A stretch of 64,000 nucleotides of DNA from an uncultured Prevotellaceae bacterium (GTDB lineage Bacteria > Bacteroidota > Bacteroidia > Bacteroidales > Bacteroidaceae). The stretch covers positions 11,454-75,453 of the forward strand of contig CAUQEF010000008.1 in the NCBI GenBank assembly GCA_963517315.1, read 5' to 3'. Below the pieces are notes generated by a model that saw only the letters and a program-made list of their open reading frames with translations, ran no database searches and was not told where the DNA came from. This document shows positions 30,738 to 42,511 of this stretch, one piece after another (within the stretch, counting starts at the first letter, position 1; every line of letters starts with the position of its first letter). A program made the translations under genes and the position numbers.

Positions 30738-30832
30738 AAGAAAGGAGTTTACTGATGAGCAAATTTACACGTTTATCGGCGGAAAGACAAACATTTAGGG
30801 GCTTTTCGTCCTTCGCGTCCGCCCCGAAAAAC

Positions 30833-30915
30833 AAAAGCACCGCACGTTTTCGGAAAAACATGCGGTGTTTCTGAGAAAAGTCCCCAACTTTTCGCGAAAA
30901 CCTGCGGACTTTTGC
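30833..30915. repeat. 21-bp-period degenerate palindromic array
   Basis: Half-sites at 30845, 30866, 30887, 30908. Confidence 0.85.
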
Positions 30916-31048: not shown

Positions 31049-32080
31049 TCAGAACCAGAGCGCGCCGCTCTCCTTGTCCACTTCGCCGAGAATGTGGGCG
31101 AACCAGTCGGTCGTGGCCAGTTCTTCGGAGATGCCGTAGGCGCGAGCGGTGGAAAGCACCAAGCGCTGTTCGGTCGGGCGGAGTTTCGCGTAGGGCACTG
31201 CGTCGAGGGTTTCCCATTCGCCCGTCTCTTCGCGCGAGGCGTAGACCACAAACGGCACGCGGAGCACCACTTCGCGGTGAGCTGTGGCCAACTGTCCGGC
31301 CGTGGGGGCGAAGAAGGGCGAGGGTTTGCCGCCGGGGAATTTCGCATCGCCGTCGAAGTGGAAGAGCGTCACGGTGAGGACGAACGATTTGCGCGGCTTC
31401 TTAAACTGGAAGAAGCCCTTCATGCCGATGGGGTTGAGCGGTTCGAAAATGTTGCCGAGGGCATTTTGTCCCGTCACCTTCGATCCGACGAGTTGCGCTG
31501 CGGGAATCGTTTTGCCCGTAGCCTTGTCGGTGGTCGATTTGAGGATACCGTCGGTGGGATTGGTGTCCATGTAGACATAGTTGAGGAGCGAATCGGCGAT
31601 TTGATCGTCTTTTTCGACGGTTCCATCGAAGGTGGGCTTCACATCGGCCGGCACAAAAAAGTGCTGGTGCGTGCGGCTTTCGCCGTTGGCTGCGATGGTG
31701 GCGGTGATGTCTTGGCCTTTCGCATCGTAATACTTGATCCAAAGGCCGTAGGGATAGAGGTATTGCCTGGAACTCAGCACGCGGAAGGCTTCGGCACTGC
31801 CTTTTTCGAGTTCCCACGCGTCGCCTTTTCGCACAAAGGTGAGGTGCTGCACGGCTTTCTTGTAAGTGATGCCTTTCGCGTCGGCGTCTTGGTGGAAAGC
31901 CACGCCGTGAAAGTGCCCGCCGGCCAAGGTGAGTTCGGCGCGCACGGGCTCCACTTCTGCGCCGGTGTGGGTTTCGGGCGCGGGTTTCGGAGTCGGATTT
32001 TCGTTGTTGTCCTTTTGGCAAGCGCCGAAGGCGAAAGCGGTGGCGGCGAGCAGGAGCACGCCAAAGATTTTACGAATCAT
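31049..32080 (-). CDS. His-motif lipoprotein associated with TonB-dependent receptor
   Basis: Lipobox FGAC followed by QKDNNE; GHFHGVAFH and HQHFF motifs. Confidence 0.85.
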   Translation of the reverse strand: MIRKIFGVLLLAATAFAFGACQKDNNENPTPKPAPETHTGAEVEPVRAELTLAGGHFHGVAFHQDADAKGITYKKAVQHLTFVRKGDAWELEKGSAEAFRVLSSRQYLYPYGLWIKYYDAKGQDITATIAANGESRTHQHFFVPADVKPTFDGTVEKDDQIADSLLNYVYMDTNPTDGILKSTTDKATGKTIPAAQLVGSKVTGQNALGNIFEPLNPIGMKGFFQFKKPRKSFVLTVTLFHFDGDAKFPGGKPSPFFAPTAGQLATAHREVVLRVPFVVYASREETGEWETLDAVPYAKLRPTEQRLVLSTARAYGISEELATTDWFAHILGEVDKESGALWF

Positions 32081-32164
32081 AGGGCTGAAAATTGAGATGA
32101 AGGATTAGCGTTGTGGTGAGGATACGCGCGATGAAGTCGGGATTTCGGCGCGTGAGTGTAGGTT

Positions 32165-32917
32165 TTATCGGCTTTTCACGGGAAAGCGCATGGCGATGTC
32201 CCACGCGTCTTCTTGCAACTGCCCGGGGGTGGGCGCATAGAAGGGCGAAAGGCTGTGATTGCGCTTGCTGAACTTAGAAACGCGGGCGTGCATCAGGCGA
32301 ATGTAGATGTGCAGGTCGCGTGCCTCCTTGAATTGGAAAATGCCCTTGAAGCCTATCGGGTTGACGTCGCCCGTCAGTTTCGTGCCGGGGGTGGAAAGTT
32401 CGTTATACCACGGGGTGGTGTCGGCATAGGTGTAGTGGTAGACACGATCGCTGCGCTGTTCGTCCGGGCGGGCGACGCTGTCGGGCGTGAAGACGGCATC
32501 GGGGATGAAAAAGTGCTGGTGAATTTTGTCTTGTCCGTTGTCGATGAATTGGCGGGTGATGTCTTCGCCCGCGAGATCGAAGTAGCGGATGCGCAACTCG
32601 TAGGCATGTTGCGTGCCTTCGGCGCGGCGCACTTGGAAACCCGCAGGCGTGCCGGCCAAGGGCGCCCAACCCAATTCGGGTTGCAGGGCATAGGTGATGG
32701 TCTGTTCGCGCGTGTCGGCCGTTTCGCCCGCATCGGGGGTGAAAATCGTGCCGTCCCACGCGCCGTGGCGCAGGGTGAGTTCTACGCGAGTGGGGTCGCC
32801 GTGGTCTTTGCTGCGGCGTTCGTCCATGGGCGCTTCGGGTTCGAGCGAACAAGCCGCGGGGAGCAGCGCAGTGCAGCCGAGGAGGAGGGAAAAGAGGAGG
32901 GAAAGATGGATTCGCAT
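32165..32917 (-). CDS. His-motif lipoprotein, paralog of 31049-32080
   Basis: Lipobox PAAC; HQHFF, YxYxDTxP, NPIGxKGxFQFK, SPFxAPTxGQL shared with its neighbour. Confidence 0.85.
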   Translation of the reverse strand: MRIHLSLLFSLLLGCTALLPAACSLEPEAPMDERRSKDHGDPTRVELTLRHGAWDGTIFTPDAGETADTREQTITYALQPELGWAPLAGTPAGFQVRRAEGTQHAYELRIRYFDLAGEDITRQFIDNGQDKIHQHFFIPDAVFTPDSVARPDEQRSDRVYHYTYADTTPWYNELSTPGTKLTGDVNPIGFKGIFQFKEARDLHIYIRLMHARVSKFSKRNHSLSPFYAPTPGQLQEDAWDIAMRFPVKSR

Positions 32918-32987
32918 AGCGCAAAATATTCGATGAAGGGGTGGTTTTTAGACGCAAGTTCGCGCAAATAAGAGGTCAGCGCGGGAC

Positions 32988-35318
32988 TTAAAACTCCCAA
33001 GTGAGCAGGAAACGCACATCGCTGCCGAGGTCGTGGGCGTAATAGCGGAAGCGGTTGGTATATTCGCGGTATTCGCGGTTGAAAAGATTGTCGGCCGTGA
33101 GCAGGAACTTGATTTTGCGTCCGTCGGGCAAGACCCAATTCACGCCGGCCTCCGCACCGAAGAGATGATAGGCCGCGGGGGTGAAGGCGATCAAGTCGGT
33201 GGCGGGATCGAAATGTGTTTGTTTCGCCACATATTTGTGCGAGGCCTTCACATAGAAGTCATGCAAGTGCGCCACGCTGCCGAGTCGGAGCGTCACGGCG
33301 TCGGAGAGTCGGAAGGAAGGGATGAAGGGCAGCGGCTTTTGCTTCGCGCGGTCGTCGGCGCGCACCCACGATGCACCGCCTTCTACCGTCAAACGCGGCA
33401 AAACTTGCCATTTGGCTTCGGCATCGACGCCGCGGAAGAACGCATCGGTGGCGCGATATTGGAAAACGGGGTAAGCGCCCGACACCATCGTGATGACTTC
33501 CGAGGTGGGCGCGTCGAAGATGTAGTTGTCGATCCACTGCACATAGCCGTCGACCGAGGCCGAGAAGCGCGGACGCGAGAAGCGGAGCGACGTAACCCAC
33601 TTCGTGCTCACTTCCGGCCGCAAGCCGGCATCGCCGCGTGCGAAGAGTCCGCTCGAATGCTCCACGCCGTTGCTGTACAACTCGTGGACGTGCGGCGCGC
33701 GCCAGGCCGATCCCACATTGGTCAGTACGTCGAGTCCCGGCAAGACGTGGGCGTGCGCACCGAGGGTGTAGGTGACATTGTTATAATGGTCGAGTTTCCC
33801 GTAGGGGCGGCCGTAAAGATCGATGCCGCGCGCGTTGAGGCGCTGATGGTCGAGGCGCGCGCCGGCTTCTGCGCCCCATTCGTTGCCGGAATACTTCTGA
33901 ATGGCGAAGACCCCGGCATTTTGCTGCACATAGTTCGGAATGATCGGCACCACGCCCGTGCCCGGCGTGTTGGTGTTCTTGACATTGGCATAGAACAGGC
34001 CGGCTTCCGTCGTCCAGTGGTCGGCATACGACTGTTGCCAGCGGCCGTCGGTTTGAAAACTCTCCAACTGCAAGTCGAGGGTGGGCACGTGCGAGCGGAA
34101 GTTGCGGCGCTGGTTGAACTCGCGGCGGTCGTCGTGCTGATAGGCGGCTTGCCATTCGAGCGTGCCGCCCGTGGGAAGGGCGTAGCGCGTGTGGAGTTTG
34201 GCCACTTGGTGCACCACTTTTTGGTAGGGATAGTCGATTTGGCGCGTCCAAGGGTAGACTTCCGTCGGGCGGCCGATGCGAATGCGTTCGCGCAGCAGTT
34301 GTTCGTCGCCCATCTGCGCACTGAACAGTACGCTGATGCGGGTGGAGAAGAGGCTGTAATAGGCATCGGCTTCAAAGCGGTCGCGTTTCCACCCGAAAGC
34401 CACCGAACCGTTGGCTTCGCGCAGGCCGGTGTTGTTGAGCAGATAGCGTGCCGTGGAACGATCGCCGCCGTTGATGTACGTGCCCTGTACGCGCCACGCC
34501 GCACGGCCGCCCGCCAAGGGCAAACCCGCGTCGGCCGTTCCGGTCAGGGCGAGGCGTCGGCCGTTGCTGCCGTAGAGCGCCGAGACGTTGCCTTGGGGCT
34601 GCGAACGCATATAGGGGAGGGCTTTGCCGTCGAGTTGGATCACCCCGCCGAGGGCTTCCGAACCGTAGCGCACGGCCTCTGCGCCTTTCACCACATTGAT
34701 GCGGCCGGCTGTGTTGGCGTCGAGTTCGGGCGCGTGATCCACGCCCCATTGTTGTCCCTGCTGGCGCACGCCGTTGTTCATGATGAGCAGACGCGTGCCA
34801 TACATGCCGTGGAGCACCGGTTTTGCGATGGTGGCGCCGGTTTGCACCATGCTCATTCCTTTGATCTGTTCGAGGGTGGAGGCAAAGGAACTGCCGAGAT
34901 TTTTCTGCACCTCCGCTGCCGAGAGCGTTTGCGTGGCAGTATTGCTCGAGTGGACGATGCGTCCGGTCTGCACCACGGCCTCGTTGAGGCGGTTGGTCAG
35001 GGCGGTGAGCGCCACGCGTAGAGGGCGGTGGCTGCGCACCTCGTCGATGGCGATGCGGCGGTCGACATAACCCACGGCGCTCACCGTGAGACTGTCGCCG
35101 TGGAGGGCTTTCTCGTTGAGCACGAGCAGACCGGCGGCGTCGGAGCGCCACAATTGACTGCCGCGGCGCACCACGGCGCCCGAAACGGGGAGACCGGTGT
35201 CGCGATCGGTGATGAGCAAGCGCGGCGCACCCACCGGTTGGGGTTCGGCGGCGCGCACGCCGGCGGGAATGACCGCGGCGGCGCAGAAAAGAAGGCTGGG
35301 AATAAGAATCTTGGACAT
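32988..35318 (-). CDS. TonB-dependent receptor (probable metal-ion transporter)
   Basis: Signal peptide, plug motif KPVLHGM..QQWGVDHAPE..VVKGAEAVRYGSEALGGVI, DNLFNREY, terminal W-E-F; start uncertain (35318 or 35366). Confidence 0.92.
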   Translation of the reverse strand: MSKILIPSLLFCAAAVIPAGVRAAEPQPVGAPRLLITDRDTGLPVSGAVVRRGSQLWRSDAAGLLVLNEKALHGDSLTVSAVGYVDRRIAIDEVRSHRPLRVALTALTNRLNEAVVQTGRIVHSSNTATQTLSAAEVQKNLGSSFASTLEQIKGMSMVQTGATIAKPVLHGMYGTRLLIMNNGVRQQGQQWGVDHAPELDANTAGRINVVKGAEAVRYGSEALGGVIQLDGKALPYMRSQPQGNVSALYGSNGRRLALTGTADAGLPLAGGRAAWRVQGTYINGGDRSTARYLLNNTGLREANGSVAFGWKRDRFEADAYYSLFSTRISVLFSAQMGDEQLLRERIRIGRPTEVYPWTRQIDYPYQKVVHQVAKLHTRYALPTGGTLEWQAAYQHDDRREFNQRRNFRSHVPTLDLQLESFQTDGRWQQSYADHWTTEAGLFYANVKNTNTPGTGVVPIIPNYVQQNAGVFAIQKYSGNEWGAEAGARLDHQRLNARGIDLYGRPYGKLDHYNNVTYTLGAHAHVLPGLDVLTNVGSAWRAPHVHELYSNGVEHSSGLFARGDAGLRPEVSTKWVTSLRFSRPRFSASVDGYVQWIDNYIFDAPTSEVITMVSGAYPVFQYRATDAFFRGVDAEAKWQVLPRLTVEGGASWVRADDRAKQKPLPFIPSFRLSDAVTLRLGSVAHLHDFYVKASHKYVAKQTHFDPATDLIAFTPAAYHLFGAEAGVNWVLPDGRKIKFLLTADNLFNREYREYTNRFRYYAHDLGSDVRFLLTWEF

Positions 35319-35852
35319 GCAAATAAGGGATACAATGGGCAGGAAGCTCCGCAGTGGTCGAGCCATTGCGGGGCAGTGGGAGAAGGCGTTACGGGGTGGG
35401 GCGTTTTCGTGCGGCGGGCGACTGCCGGCGGCTGTTGTCCCGCGCCGGACTGCGTGGTGCAGGGCGCATGGGGAGAGGACATCTCGGCTTTCCCTGCCGA
35501 TGAGGGAGAAAGAGCGCGGGGGAGGAGGGCGCAAAGATTTCACCGGAGGCGAAAGAACCATGCGCCCCCTTCTGCCGTGCGCTCACTGAGGTGGCGCGCC
35601 GAGAGGACGAAGGGAGGCCTGTGCGAACTGCCGCCGACGAGGCGCTTCTTCCGATACGCCGGTTACAGCACAGGAGAATACGGCGTGCAGCCCGACTCCG
35701 GTGACCGTCAGAAGGCGGGAGTGCGGGCAATGAAGCCGTGCGACATCTCATCGGCAGGCCGTTTTGCGCAGAAGGGAGAACGCAGTGAATCTACATTGCG
35801 CACTCACGCAGCGGAAACGGGCGAACGCTGAAAAGAAAAAGGGGAGAAAAAA

Positions 35853-36335
35853 CTAAACGTGGGGCGGCCCGCGCAACACTGCGCGTTCCGTCACCGTGTG
35901 ATAGACCGAGGGGCTATCGCTGAGAAAGGGTGTTTCTGGTGTGGAAACGAAAAAACAAAATTGGGCAACCGTGGGAACGGTGTAAGGGGAGGGCAGGAAA
36001 TGACAAATGCTGCAATGGCGATGCTTGTCGCCCGAGTCTTGTCCCTGTTGATCGTTGTGATGTCGGCATTTGGCCGCTTTTTTGCCCACGCCTTGGGGCA
36101 AGGCGGTCGTGCCACTTGCGCTGCGAAGGCCTTGCCGTGCGGCTTGTGCCGCGGCTTCGCGCAAGCAGTCGAGACACACCGTGGCGGTGCCCTGAGCGGC
36201 GGTCTCTACCGTGGTGTAAGTCGGCACACTGTCGTGGTAGTGAAGGGACTTCACCACCAATTGAGGCAGCAGGGCGAGGAGCATGATCCAAGCCAGTGCC
36301 ACTTGACGACGGAGGGTGCGGAGCTTTGCTGACAT
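35853..36335 (-). CDS. DUF2946/CruR-like upstream ORF with CxxC motifs and C-terminal RGPP putative arrest motif
   Basis: N-terminal hydrophobic helix then HYH, CLDC, CRHH, HRHCSICHF, ending LRGPPHV-stop; directly upstream of a TBDT. Confidence 0.78.
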   Translation of the reverse strand: MSAKLRTLRRQVALAWIMLLALLPQLVVKSLHYHDSVPTYTTVETAAQGTATVCLDCLREAAAQAARQGLRSASGTTALPQGVGKKAAKCRHHNDQQGQDSGDKHRHCSICHFLPSPYTVPTVAQFCFFVSTPETPFLSDSPSVYHTVTERAVLRGPPHV

Positions 36336-36342
36336 GTGTGCG

Positions 36343-36350
36343 CAAAGTTA
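36343..36350 (-). promoter_or_regulatory. -7 element (TAACTTTG) for uORF-TBDT operon
   Basis: Consensus match 7 nt before ATG 36335. Confidence 0.72.
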
Positions 36351-36781: not shown

Positions 36782-36982
36782 TCAGAAATCCGTGAAGTCG
36801 CCGAAGCCGGTGGTGGCATCGTCTGTTGATTCGGCTTCTCCCCAAATGGGATTGACATAGTCCTCTTGGGTGAGCACCTGTGTCTTTTTCGTAATGTTGA
36901 GCCCTCCCATAGAAAGAGTGTTCATTACGGGTTCAGCATTGAGCTTAATTTCTCGGAGGGTAGGGGTGGTGTAGAATTTCAT
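36782..36982 (-). CDS. 66-aa MKxYxxP-type small peptide
   Basis: MKFYTTPTLREIKLNAEPVM...NPIW...; paralogous to 37909-38076; followed by a hairpin. Confidence 0.7.
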   Translation of the reverse strand: MKFYTTPTLREIKLNAEPVMNTLSMGGLNITKKTQVLTQEDYVNPIWGEAESTDDATTGFGDFTDF

Positions 36983-40273: not shown

Positions 40274-42511
40274 TCAAGCCCACAGACTTGCGAGGCGGAA
40301 GGTGAGCCACGCCGCGAGATAAGCCACGGCCGTGGTGTAGAGCATGGAGAGTATTGCGTATTTCCACTGCCCGCTCTCGCCGCGAATGGCCGCGATGGTC
40401 GCCAAACAGGGAAAATAGAGCAAGGCAAACACCATATAGCTCAATGCCGCCGCAGGAGAAGTAGCCTCGCGCAGGGCGGTTGAGATGGCTTGATCGGCCG
40501 CTTCGTCGTCGCCCGTGCCGGCGGCCGCTGCGCTCTTCTCGTCCATGTGATAGAGCACGCCGAGTGTCGAAATCATCAGCTCTTTGGCCGCCGCGCCCGT
40601 GAGGAGACCGACGCCCATGCGCCAGTCGAAACCGAGCGGCGCAATGACCGGCTGTATAAGATGTCCCGCCTGTCCGAGATAAGATTGCTCCTGCCGCTCG
40701 AGATCCGAGAGTTCGCGCTCCGGTTGCGGGAAGTAGCCCAAGATCCACACCACGATCGAGGCCACCAAGATGATGCCGCCCATCTTTCGCAGGTACTGTC
40801 GGCCCTTTTCCCACGTGTGGCTCAGCACACTCGCGGCCACCGGTCGGCGATAGGGCGGAATTTCCATCACGAAATGGCTCTCTTCGCGGCGGCGGATGAA
40901 GAAGCTCAGCAGATAGGCCGAGAGCAGCGCCATGAAGATGCCGCCGCAGTAGAGGAGGAAGAGCACCAAGGTAGCGTTGTCGGGAAAGAAGGCCAGCGTG
41001 AAGACCGTGTAGACCGTGAGACGGGCGGAGCACGACATGAACGGCAGGGTGATCATCGTGAGCAGGCGGCTTTTGCGGTTCTCGATGGTGCGCGTGGCCA
41101 TGATGGCCGGCACGTTGCAACCGAAACCGGTGAGCATCGGGAAAAACGACTTACCGTGAAGTCCCACGCGGCGCAAAATCGGGTCGAAAAGCAGGGCGGC
41201 GCGTGCCAAATAGCCCGAATCTTCGAGAATGGAGATGAAGAAATAGAGAATCAAGATCTGGGGCAAGAACACAATCACGGCACCCACGCCGCCCACCACG
41301 CCCGAAGCCAGCAAATCGGAGAGCCACCAACCTTTGGGCAGCGCTTCGGTGAGCGTCTTGGTGAGCCACGCCACGCCGTTTTCCATCCAGTCCATCGGAT
41401 ACTGGCCGATGGTGAACGTCGTCCAGAAGACGAGCAGAATCACGGCGAAGAAAAACAGGTAGGCCAAGGGGCTTTTCACCAAATGGCGGTCGACCCACCC
41501 GGTGAAGCGCACCGCCTTCCCCTCGTGCAGGCGGTAGATGTCCGCCAAGTAGTGGTGTACCAACGCATGCGGGTCGGCCGGCGAGTGGGGGTCGTCGGCC
41601 GGCAGCGCGGGTTGCTCCTCTCTCCGGTCGTAGGCCTCGATCACGGCCTCCGCCAGCGCTTGCAATCCCTCTCCGCGGCTGGCCACGCAAGGAACAAAGC
41701 GCATGCCCATGTGCTCCGAGAGGCGTTCCACATTGAGCGTCGAACCGCTTTCGGCAAATTCGTCCCACAAATTCAGTGCCCCCACCATGGGTAAGCCGAG
41801 GCGACGCACCTGCAAGGTGAGCAAGAGGTTGCGTTCCAAGTTGTTGACGTCGAGCACGTTGATCACCGCGTCGATTTCGCCCTTCAAGAGTTCGCTCATC
41901 ACATAAGCCTCCTCGGGCGAGTAGGCGCGGAGCGAATAAGTGCCGGGCAGGTCGACGAATCGCACCGTGCGCCCCGCGATGTGCGTTTCGCCCACGACGC
42001 TCGCCACCGTCACCCCTGCATAGTTGCCGGTGCGCTCGTGGCCGCCGGCCAGCGCGTTGAACACCGTCGTCTTTCCGCAATTCGGGTTGCCCACCAAAGC
42101 CACCGTGATCGTACCTTCGGCTTTCGGGGCCAACGGTTTTCGCGGCGAACAACCCGGGCAAGCACCGCAACTTCCGCTGTCACACCCCGTGGCCGGCAGA
42201 ATCGGTGCCGTGGGGAGGCGGAAAGCTTCGTGTCTTTCGCCCGGTGTGCGCGCCACGCGGCGCTCGTCGGCATAGTTTTCGTCGGGACGTTCGGTGCTCA
42301 CCTCGATGAGTTGTGCTTCGCTGTTGCGGAGCGCCACGCGCTGTCCGAGCATGGCGTAGATTACGGGCGAACCGCCGGGCGTGCCGTAGACGCGCGTCAC
42401 CTCCTGTCCCGGCACGAAACCGAGTTCTTCGAGGCGGATGCGCAGCGAGGGACTGCCCTTGGTGGCGGTGACGTAGGCGGTAGCTCCGTCGGTGAGATGA
42501 GAGAGATTCAT
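40274..42511 (-). CDS. feoB: Ferrous iron (or Mn) transporter, FeoA-FeoB fusion
   Basis: N-terminal FeoA (RLEELGFVPG..VALR), GNPNCGKT, GNYAGVTV, DLPGTYSL, LEDSGYLAR, GFGCNVPA, PFMSCSAR. Confidence 0.94.
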   Translation of the reverse strand: MNLSHLTDGATAYVTATKGSPSLRIRLEELGFVPGQEVTRVYGTPGGSPVIYAMLGQRVALRNSEAQLIEVSTERPDENYADERRVARTPGERHEAFRLPTAPILPATGCDSGSCGACPGCSPRKPLAPKAEGTITVALVGNPNCGKTTVFNALAGGHERTGNYAGVTVASVVGETHIAGRTVRFVDLPGTYSLRAYSPEEAYVMSELLKGEIDAVINVLDVNNLERNLLLTLQVRRLGLPMVGALNLWDEFAESGSTLNVERLSEHMGMRFVPCVASRGEGLQALAEAVIEAYDRREEQPALPADDPHSPADPHALVHHYLADIYRLHEGKAVRFTGWVDRHLVKSPLAYLFFFAVILLVFWTTFTIGQYPMDWMENGVAWLTKTLTEALPKGWWLSDLLASGVVGGVGAVIVFLPQILILYFFISILEDSGYLARAALLFDPILRRVGLHGKSFFPMLTGFGCNVPAIMATRTIENRKSRLLTMITLPFMSCSARLTVYTVFTLAFFPDNATLVLFLLYCGGIFMALLSAYLLSFFIRRREESHFVMEIPPYRRPVAASVLSHTWEKGRQYLRKMGGIILVASIVVWILGYFPQPERELSDLERQEQSYLGQAGHLIQPVIAPLGFDWRMGVGLLTGAAAKELMISTLGVLYHMDEKSAAAAGTGDDEAADQAISTALREATSPAAALSYMVFALLYFPCLATIAAIRGESGQWKYAILSMLYTTAVAYLAAWLTFRLASLWA

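Follow-up and report, generated by a model that had tools for sequence, protein, structure and literature searches.

In this study we analyzed a 64,000-nucleotide stretch of DNA, hereafter the window, from an uncultured Prevotellaceae bacterium (assembly GCA_963517315.1, contig CAUQEF010000008.1, positions 11,454 to 75,453). A 160-amino-acid open reading frame (ORF) at 35853..36335 is probably a cis-acting, metal-sensing ribosome-arrest leader that acts in the manner of CruR of Bordetella pertussis and controls a metal-uptake operon encoding a TonB-dependent receptor and two surface lipoproteins. Based on ORF analysis, alignments, and profile searches, it is probably a real and well-conserved arrest leader, and the uptake operon that it heads is probably of a zinc type. 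Coordinates are those of the window, and all window features described here lie on its minus strand. Published work is cited from the available portions of each text.

In the literature found, metal-sensing arrest leaders have been demonstrated for copper only, in two Proteobacteria, and our search found no experimental study of such leaders in Bacteroidota. The leader class is already anticipated in print, including in silico members from Bacteroidota. New here are a probable metal other than copper and a natural series of Arg-free motifs among orthologs. If true, a Bacteroidota branch heading ZnuD-like importers would extend the arrest-leader mechanism to another metal, and it would be a candidate way for gut and oral Bacteroidales to sense metal starvation.

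The leader, its terminal motif, and its spacing

The leader ends in the arrest motif RGPP (residues 155-158; 35862..35873), two codons ahead of the stop. The family CxxC, a putative metal site, is CSIC (36003..36014), 43 residues before RGPP and within the stretch HRHCSICHF (residues 105-113). A CxxC followed after 41-47 amino acids by [RHN][AGS]PP near the stop occurs in one of the 17,132 genome reading frames of at least 60 amino acids, and this one is the window leader. AlphaFold predicts an N-terminal hydrophobic helix, a signal anchor or signal peptide (residues 3-31; 36243..36329), as a block with a predicted local distance difference test score (pLDDT) of 83-96, and the remainder is modeled at low confidence (predicted template modeling score, pTM, 0.32). 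Directly after the helix stands HYH (residues 32-34; 36242-36234). By comparison with orthologs, the region at 36057..36176 is a variable insert. It contains CRHH (residues 90-93) and an extra CxxC, CLDC (residues 54-57), that is specific to the lineage. An earlier, sequence-only reading of this DNA had described the ORF with these motifs, a -7 promoter element 7 nt before its ATG, and a receptor and two lipoproteins following on the same strand, and all of these are present where it placed them.

A profile of 21 leaders, seeded with leaders found upstream of receptor homologs, matched 110 of 301 genomes of the host's family, 39 of 301 genomes of the phylum, and 3,006 library clusters. Counts within the family are to be read as descriptions and not as statistics, because related leaders are not independent. 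At the 110 loci examined from the family search (107 of 121 matches, one receptor-homolog locus, and two duplicates), the leaders end in RAPP (75), RGPP (19), RGPPP (1), HSPP (9), NSPP (5), or HAPP (1). The gene after the leader is mostly large and usually encodes a TonB receptor, with resistance-nodulation-division (RND) efflux genes in five loci. R[AG]PP is the ending at each of the 29 phylum-level loci examined. Across 158 unique leaders, the spacing between CxxC and motif is 43 residues in 141, 44 in 10, 42 in one, and 46 in one, and is absent in five, so that 152 of the 158 fall at 42-44. Similarly, among the best 150 of the 3,006 library matches, 139 of the 146 carrying a motif have a spacing of 43. 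By contrast, the distance from helix to CxxC is free, at 22-79 amino acids. A fixed distance on one side of the CxxC and a free one on the other fit a sensor located, like that of CruR, close to the tunnel exit, and give no support to sensing by the exported chain, as had first been proposed.

The mean column identity across leaders is 22%, and the only columns held are those of the Cys residues, HxH, and the terminal motif. In the HxH motif, H32 is invariant and H34 is conserved in at least 90% of sequences, and a hydrophobic N-terminal segment is present in all 65 scored orthologous leaders. Compared with two relatives, the window leader is either unchanged or altered mainly at synonymous positions in its N- and C-terminal thirds, and the middle insert varies freely; the RGPP codons themselves differ synonymously between relatives.

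These features suggest the following mechanism. A single transcript would run from just before the leader ATG to a hairpin at 30838, and the ribosome would stall at RGPP. In published work covering four contexts, arrest was most robust with RGPP, and CruR was shown to arrest in vitro, its third motif codon being in the P site and its fourth in the A site (PMC12992588). From the fixed geometry, the stall would put some 46 residues between the peptidyl-transferase center and the CxxC, which would then lie just outside the exit tunnel; metal bound there, perhaps together with nearby His residues, could fold the chain and pull the arrest free. The CruR spacing is 45, of which changes by +/-2 are tolerated and +5 breaks regulation, and its signal peptide is dispensable (PMC9426467). 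By analogy, release of the arrest would turn the downstream genes off, most simply through Rho-dependent termination in the long gap that follows the leader. The importer would then be made only when the metal is scarce, with stalling keeping the operon on, and a metal-released arrest that switches expression off would be a sensible sign for an importer.

A promoter-like Bacteroidota -7 element, TAACTTTG (36343..36350), is positioned 7 nt 5' of the leader ATG. TAnnTTTG, which we take to be the consensus of this element, has 1,308 matches genome-wide with no peak of ATG at +7, and the element alone is thus weak evidence. Its assignment here is supported because it is conserved upstream of orthologous leaders: close relatives have it at 9 nt before the ATG, and it occurs within 200 nt before the helix in 49 of 65 orthologous leaders, compared with 6 of 63 leader-receptor gaps. 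A transcript starting at this site, just before the ATG, would be near-leaderless. A sigma-70 scan for a promoter carries no information in this phylum, and no RNA family, riboswitches included, reached its gathering score in the window. For public RNA reads over the operon, no RNA run was listed, and two runs with a small share are probably DNA of relatives.

Arg-free motifs in the orthologous operon

Orthologous receptor loci were taken as the best 80 of 126, of which five had too little upstream DNA, leaving 75 that were scored. The leader is kept at all 75, with one frameshifted and one extended at its tail. Here the motifs are RGPP (11), RAPP (20), HSPP (35), HAPP (5), and NSPP (4), a mix that is biased by receptor search patterns derived partly from two H/N-type receptors. 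Orthologs thus retain the leader, whereas strict R[AG]PP, conservation of which the sequence-only reading had set as a check, does not hold: 44 of the 75 have an Arg-free motif in its place, mostly N-x-[HN]-[SA]-PP, along with a conserved upstream V-Y-R. The calls for L143 (RGPP), L154, and L175 were reread by eye, and L159 (RAPPP) was counted as RAPP. In L175 (L175:2700-3420) the leader is frameshifted with HSPP in the other frame, and in L154 (L154:3039-3449) RAPP is followed by a 31-residue tail; both may have arisen through errors of assembly or may be natural variants in regulation.

An hhalign comparison identifies the R-type and H/N-type leaders as homologs (99.2%, E 2e-19). Among 33 H/N leaders, V(-10) is present in 29, Y(-9) in 31, R(-8) in 27, and N(-2) in 32; the only position shared by R leaders is L(-1), in 22 of 23. 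The shared positions of the H/N leaders are partly the result of common descent, yet neighboring positions are at 20-35%. At L091:443-763, in a genome with three leader matches, a HAPP leader that is independent and lacks N(-2) stands before another receptor type. In a receptor tree of 77 rows, built by a quick method, all H/N rows fall within a single 54-row group (SH-aLRT 99). Within it, a cluster of 12 RAPP rows, mostly from Bacteroides, branches at a node that the tree does not resolve, and the number and direction of motif switches can therefore not be deduced. In the genomes searched, no H/N motif was detected beyond the host's family, and an H/N profile applied order-wide matched leaders in 23 of 301 genomes, all of them with R[AG]PP; two of these genomes, besides the host's own, are from the host's family. 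The cassette of RAPP leader, receptor, and lipoprotein (L152-L159) is nearly identical across several Bacteroidales records, and in L154 an integrase-like ORF, recognized by eye, comes after it (L154:7122-8456); this suggests a mobile element.

Earlier work had described HAPP, QAPP, RSPP, and NSP-stop as arrest motifs, of which HAPP and QAPP show that arrest is possible with an Arg-free core (PMC10987492, PMC12992588). Arg is reported to be irreplaceable in ApcA, ApdA, and ApdP. HSPP and NSPP are not in the main texts of these two papers, the supplements of which may list such leaders, and the available portions describe no V-Y-R...N extension (PMC10987492, PMC12992588). A literature search did not find arrest at HSPP. 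The series R[AG]PP, HAPP, HSPP, and NSPP within one orthologous operon provides a natural test set for Arg-free arrest. More tentatively, and with the odds rather against it, the leader may be a zinc-sensing nascent-chain attenuator, of a kind present across Bacteroidota, and the protein counterpart of an undescribed zinc riboswitch, none being known according to Roy et al. In this proposal, a Prevotella branch of this operon would have exchanged an Arg motif that is essential elsewhere for V-Y-R-x-x-x-S-[IV]-N-x-[HN]-S-P-P. This new and longer arrest sequence would stall via tunnel contacts 8-15 residues upstream while the 43-residue metal ruler was kept.

Two further groups of leaders were observed in the family searches. 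At the phylum level, the leader in L226, L248, L234, L237, and L244 is followed by an ABC-ATPase-like or lipoprotein-like gene instead of a receptor, as judged by eye from the first residues. In a subset of the loci L061-L131, the leader has a second CxxC at 64-66 residues, and the receptors are more distant and have QQWGD[ED]HG-type plugs; leaders of this kind are possibly a second metal class.

Receptor, operon, and output step

The gene downstream of the leader (32988..35318) encodes a TonB-dependent receptor of the ZnuD/OprC type with Pfam plug and barrel domains above cut-off. In a comparison of a six-sequence receptor profile with solved structures, ZnuD was the best match (E 1.8e-39), followed by OprC (1e-30). 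Receptor plug residues D194-H195 align with ZnuD D99/H100 and E553 aligns with H499, both at an equal 14-residue offset in numbering, and the plug DH is present in 76 of 80 orthologous receptor loci. ZnuD is Zur-regulated. The host genome contains ZnuA and only one weak match to the Fur family. Given the arrest-leader model, zinc is the most likely sensed metal, at about an even chance; Fe(II), Mn, or Co come next as a possibility of clearly lower weight, and Cu or Ni are less likely still. Several results weigh against zinc. Among the ZnuD ligands, D99 and H100 are kept, but H499 is replaced by Glu (E553) and the E340 region is unaligned. OprC ranks above ZnuD when a single receptor sequence or a three-sequence profile is used. 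The NCBIfam ZnuD model (NF038289) gives 84 bits against a cut-off of 950, and NCBIfam heme-receptor models score higher on the receptor than ZnuD, all below their cut-offs.

Some of these results could be accounted for if the same switch sensed and imported Fe(II), Mn, or Co, or several divalent metals, which we consider unlikely but the strongest of the alternatives. Glu in place of H499 would make for a more oxygen-rich site, the heme-receptor models have the top NCBIfam scores, the Fur family is represented by the single weak match, and a FeoA-FeoB fusion gene (40274-42511) is located on the same strand about 4 kb upstream of the leader. The DH of the receptor plug, on the other hand, matches ZnuD, and a Cys2/His-rich sensor favors thiophilic metals.

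ATG 35318 is most likely the start of the receptor because it begins a signal-peptide-like sequence and is conserved in two relatives. A start at 35561, that of the longest ORF, was rejected, as the N-terminal extension is not conserved. From the start at 35318 it follows that the untranslated gap between leader and receptor is 534 nt long (35319..35852). This gap is C-rich (203 C, 134 G), with a pyrimidine run right after the leader stop, and is unusually long by comparison with orthologs (41-621 nt, median 184). Sequence conservation between species ends about 40 nt after the leader stop. A structured RNA in the gap was considered and rejected (folding z -1.9, sequence not conserved).

Lipoprotein 1 (250 amino acids; 32165..32917) contains a conserved HQHFF and is predicted to form an Ig-like beta-sandwich. 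By sequence, lipoprotein 2 (343 amino acids; 31049..32080) is its paralog. Both belong to a family that has no name, in which the stretch HQ[H]FF is nearly invariant and a beta-sandwich is modeled with confidence (pLDDT 90), and in many relatives the pair is replaced by a single lipoprotein of about 540-620 amino acids. No Pfam family and no solved relative were found for them; Foldseek returned no match at E<=0.001, and the best VIA hit (Z 6.9) was a generic Ig-like sandwich. The single name given to the best 120 of 336 homologs is 'putative lipoprotein.' These proteins could serve in metal capture.

An intrinsic-terminator-like hairpin of 13 pairs with a U tract (30838..30867), ahead of dapB, is the probable end of the operon; the number of terminators in the region is not above that in shuffled sequences, and the hairpin is therefore weak evidence alone. 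A further TAnnTTTG is located at 30767, before dapB, and a consensus scan of the minus strand found none between 36350 and 30767. Thus no canonical element lies between leader and receptor, in support of the leader proposed in the sequence-only reading. Among named records, the closest come from Prevotellaceae, and their receptors are 89-94% identical. A paralog of the receptor (35% identical) is present elsewhere in the host genome (G000:C1, about 109000-117150, minus strand), followed by several lipoprotein-like genes, and the leader profile detected no second leader in this genome. Upstream of the leader, a 66-amino-acid ORF (36782-36982) without a Pfam match has a homolog in the same place in L141, behind a 575-amino-acid secreted-type protein.

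For the output step, Rho termination is the simplest analogy, and we give it about equal odds of being right or wrong. Rho is present in the host genome, and the C-over-G skew before the motif is positive in 54 of 65 loci. Two points speak against such an output. At four-fold degenerate sites the skew exceeds that of the receptor in only 26 of 66 cases, so that the data give no sign of selection for Rho loading there, and the 534-nt C-rich gap downstream of the stalled ribosome could load Rho with or without a stall. An action of the CutF or SecM type, in which the leader senses the periplasm or the export force and the stalled ribosome unmasks the receptor start site, is more doubtful than a switch for Fe(II), Mn, or Co. 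It would account for the conservation of the N-terminal helix and HxH in nearly all members, and the export signal is reported to be essential in CutF. However, gap lengths as variable as those given above do not fit it, and start-site unmasking was not supported across the 65 loci. Pairing of the stall site with the receptor start was stronger than in controls in 0 of 65 loci, in a test biased by controls that are GC-richer than the start regions. Blocking the footprint of the stalled ribosome changed the start accessibility by a median of 0, with three gains and two losses above 0.15 in 61 loci (0.59 to 0.60 in the window). These results bear on the unmasking step, and sensing in the periplasm as such may still occur.

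Comparison with known systems

Among known systems, CruR (Bp2923 of Bordetella pertussis, upstream of CrtA/BfrG; PMC9426467, PMC12992588, PMC12914433) shares with the window leader an export signal or membrane helix and a CxxC whose distance to a terminal R[AG]PP is fixed. In both, the leader is first in its operon and is followed by a long gap without an internal promoter (here by consensus scan only) and by a TonB receptor (PMC9426467). The spacing of 43 as opposed to 45 is at the edge of the tolerance of 1-2 residues. Conservation across the family of motif, CxxC spacing, and first-in-operon place thus supports the proposal of a CruR-like arrest leader made from the sequence alone. Among the differences, the terminal motif here is RGPP, the gap is 534 nt here and 162 nt in CruR, and a ZnuD-like receptor and lipoproteins occupy the place of CrtA and PepSY_TM, without copper-homeostasis neighbors. 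Moreover, unlike in CruR, the host has no detected cuproenzymes among those tested, and orthologs of the leader use H/N-based motifs.

Pfam DUF2946 (PF11162), suggested earlier as a check of this kinship, also counts against it, with 10.3 bits (E 1.3) on the leader compared with a cut-off of 23.7; in 4 of 21 leader relatives it matches at E<=1 (best 0.0012). Because neither the Pfam cut-off is reached nor the copper neighbors are present, the leader is classed as CruR-like and not as DUF2946. UniRef names a Bacteroides ortholog 'DUF2946 domain-containing,' and 20 of 30 feature matches of the leader in ESM Atlas are in the DUF2946 set, both of which point to kinship with CruR/DUF2946.

A true copper switch as in CruR-CrtA is quite improbable. 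It would be in keeping with the shared architecture and nearly equal spacing, and OprC is the best single-sequence match of the receptor in the Protein Data Bank (PDB). At the OprC plug CxxxM copper ligands the aligned receptor residues are Q/W and D/H, with no Cys or Met. This does not exclude copper because CrtA also lacks Cys and Met and imports Cu via His (PMC12914433), a point to be set against our preference for zinc. It is thus the missing demand, and not the sequence of the receptor, that argues against copper. Searches of the host genome (92% complete) for six families of copper or nickel enzymes (COX1, multicopper oxidase, Cu/Zn-SOD, NosZ, NiFe-hydrogenase, and urease) found none, which makes copper unlikely; heme-copper oxidases, which CrtA serves (PMC12914433), and three other cuproenzyme families are among them. 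Copper-related upstream ORF classes are also reported to be lacking in Bacteroidota (PMC12992588). Together with the ZnuD-type ligands, the cuproenzymes not found make a non-copper metal likely, in line with the different specificity suggested in the sequence-only reading, but not for the reason given there, namely the second CxxC and the His clusters. CLDC is kept in close homologs and missing from the next Alloprevotella orthologs with the same receptor clade, and was rejected as a specificity determinant because it is lineage-specific within a variable insert. Finally, a stable membrane-anchored metal-binding accessory protein, in which RGPP is incidental or tunes only its own synthesis, is very unlikely: the helix, His clusters, and Cys pairs are conserved and the extra CxxC is kept in close homologs, but the low column identity outside Cys, HxH, and the terminal motif, the lack of modeled structure beyond the helix, the report that many bacterial phyla avoid RGPP more than any other 4-mer, and a 43-residue ruler that makes sense solely on a stalled ribosome all argue for the arrest leader.

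Our leader resembles CutF of Rhodobacter capsulatus and the CutF-like set in being a small Cys/His leader that is exported and carries a proline motif at its C terminus (PMC9973294; bioRxiv 10.1101/2025.02.05.636593). CutF is described as having CxxxC, requiring export, and inducing a detoxifying oxidase through the melting of a stem-loop, and such coupling was not detected at the leader loci. The in silico survey of CutF-like proteins includes many Bacteroidota members and TonB neighbors and suggests non-copper members (bioRxiv 10.1101/2025.02.05.636593), and TonB-linked RAPP/RGPP upstream ORFs have been counted in silico across Gram-negative phyla (PMC12992588). The same core motif class is found in RQH-family arrest peptides (ApdA/ApdP, HAPP, QAPP) and in the NSP-stop and NAP-stop peptides of Bacteroidota (PMC10987492, PMC12992588). 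These monitor Sec/YidC, unlike the leader, and NSP-stop arrests at termination, whereas the leaders here have 2-6 sense codons after the motif.

Related Bacteroidales His-rich RAPP leaders of the family DUF6769 (PF20558) are weakly matched by the leader profile, do not have the CxxC-43 ruler, and stand ahead of RND efflux pumps; PF20558 does not match the window leader at E<=5. In L132, L133, L135, L136, and L137, His-rich R[AG]PP leaders of this ruler-free kind stand first in RND efflux operons, and the two that were scanned, L132 and L135, match DUF6769. No relevant literature on them was found, and they are probably the export-side counterparts. Like ZnuD of Neisseria meningitidis (PDB 4RDR), the best match of the wider receptor profile, the receptor conserves the plug Asp-His; unlike ZnuD, from which it is distant (84 of 950 bits), it has Glu for H499 and is encoded in an operon headed by a leader.

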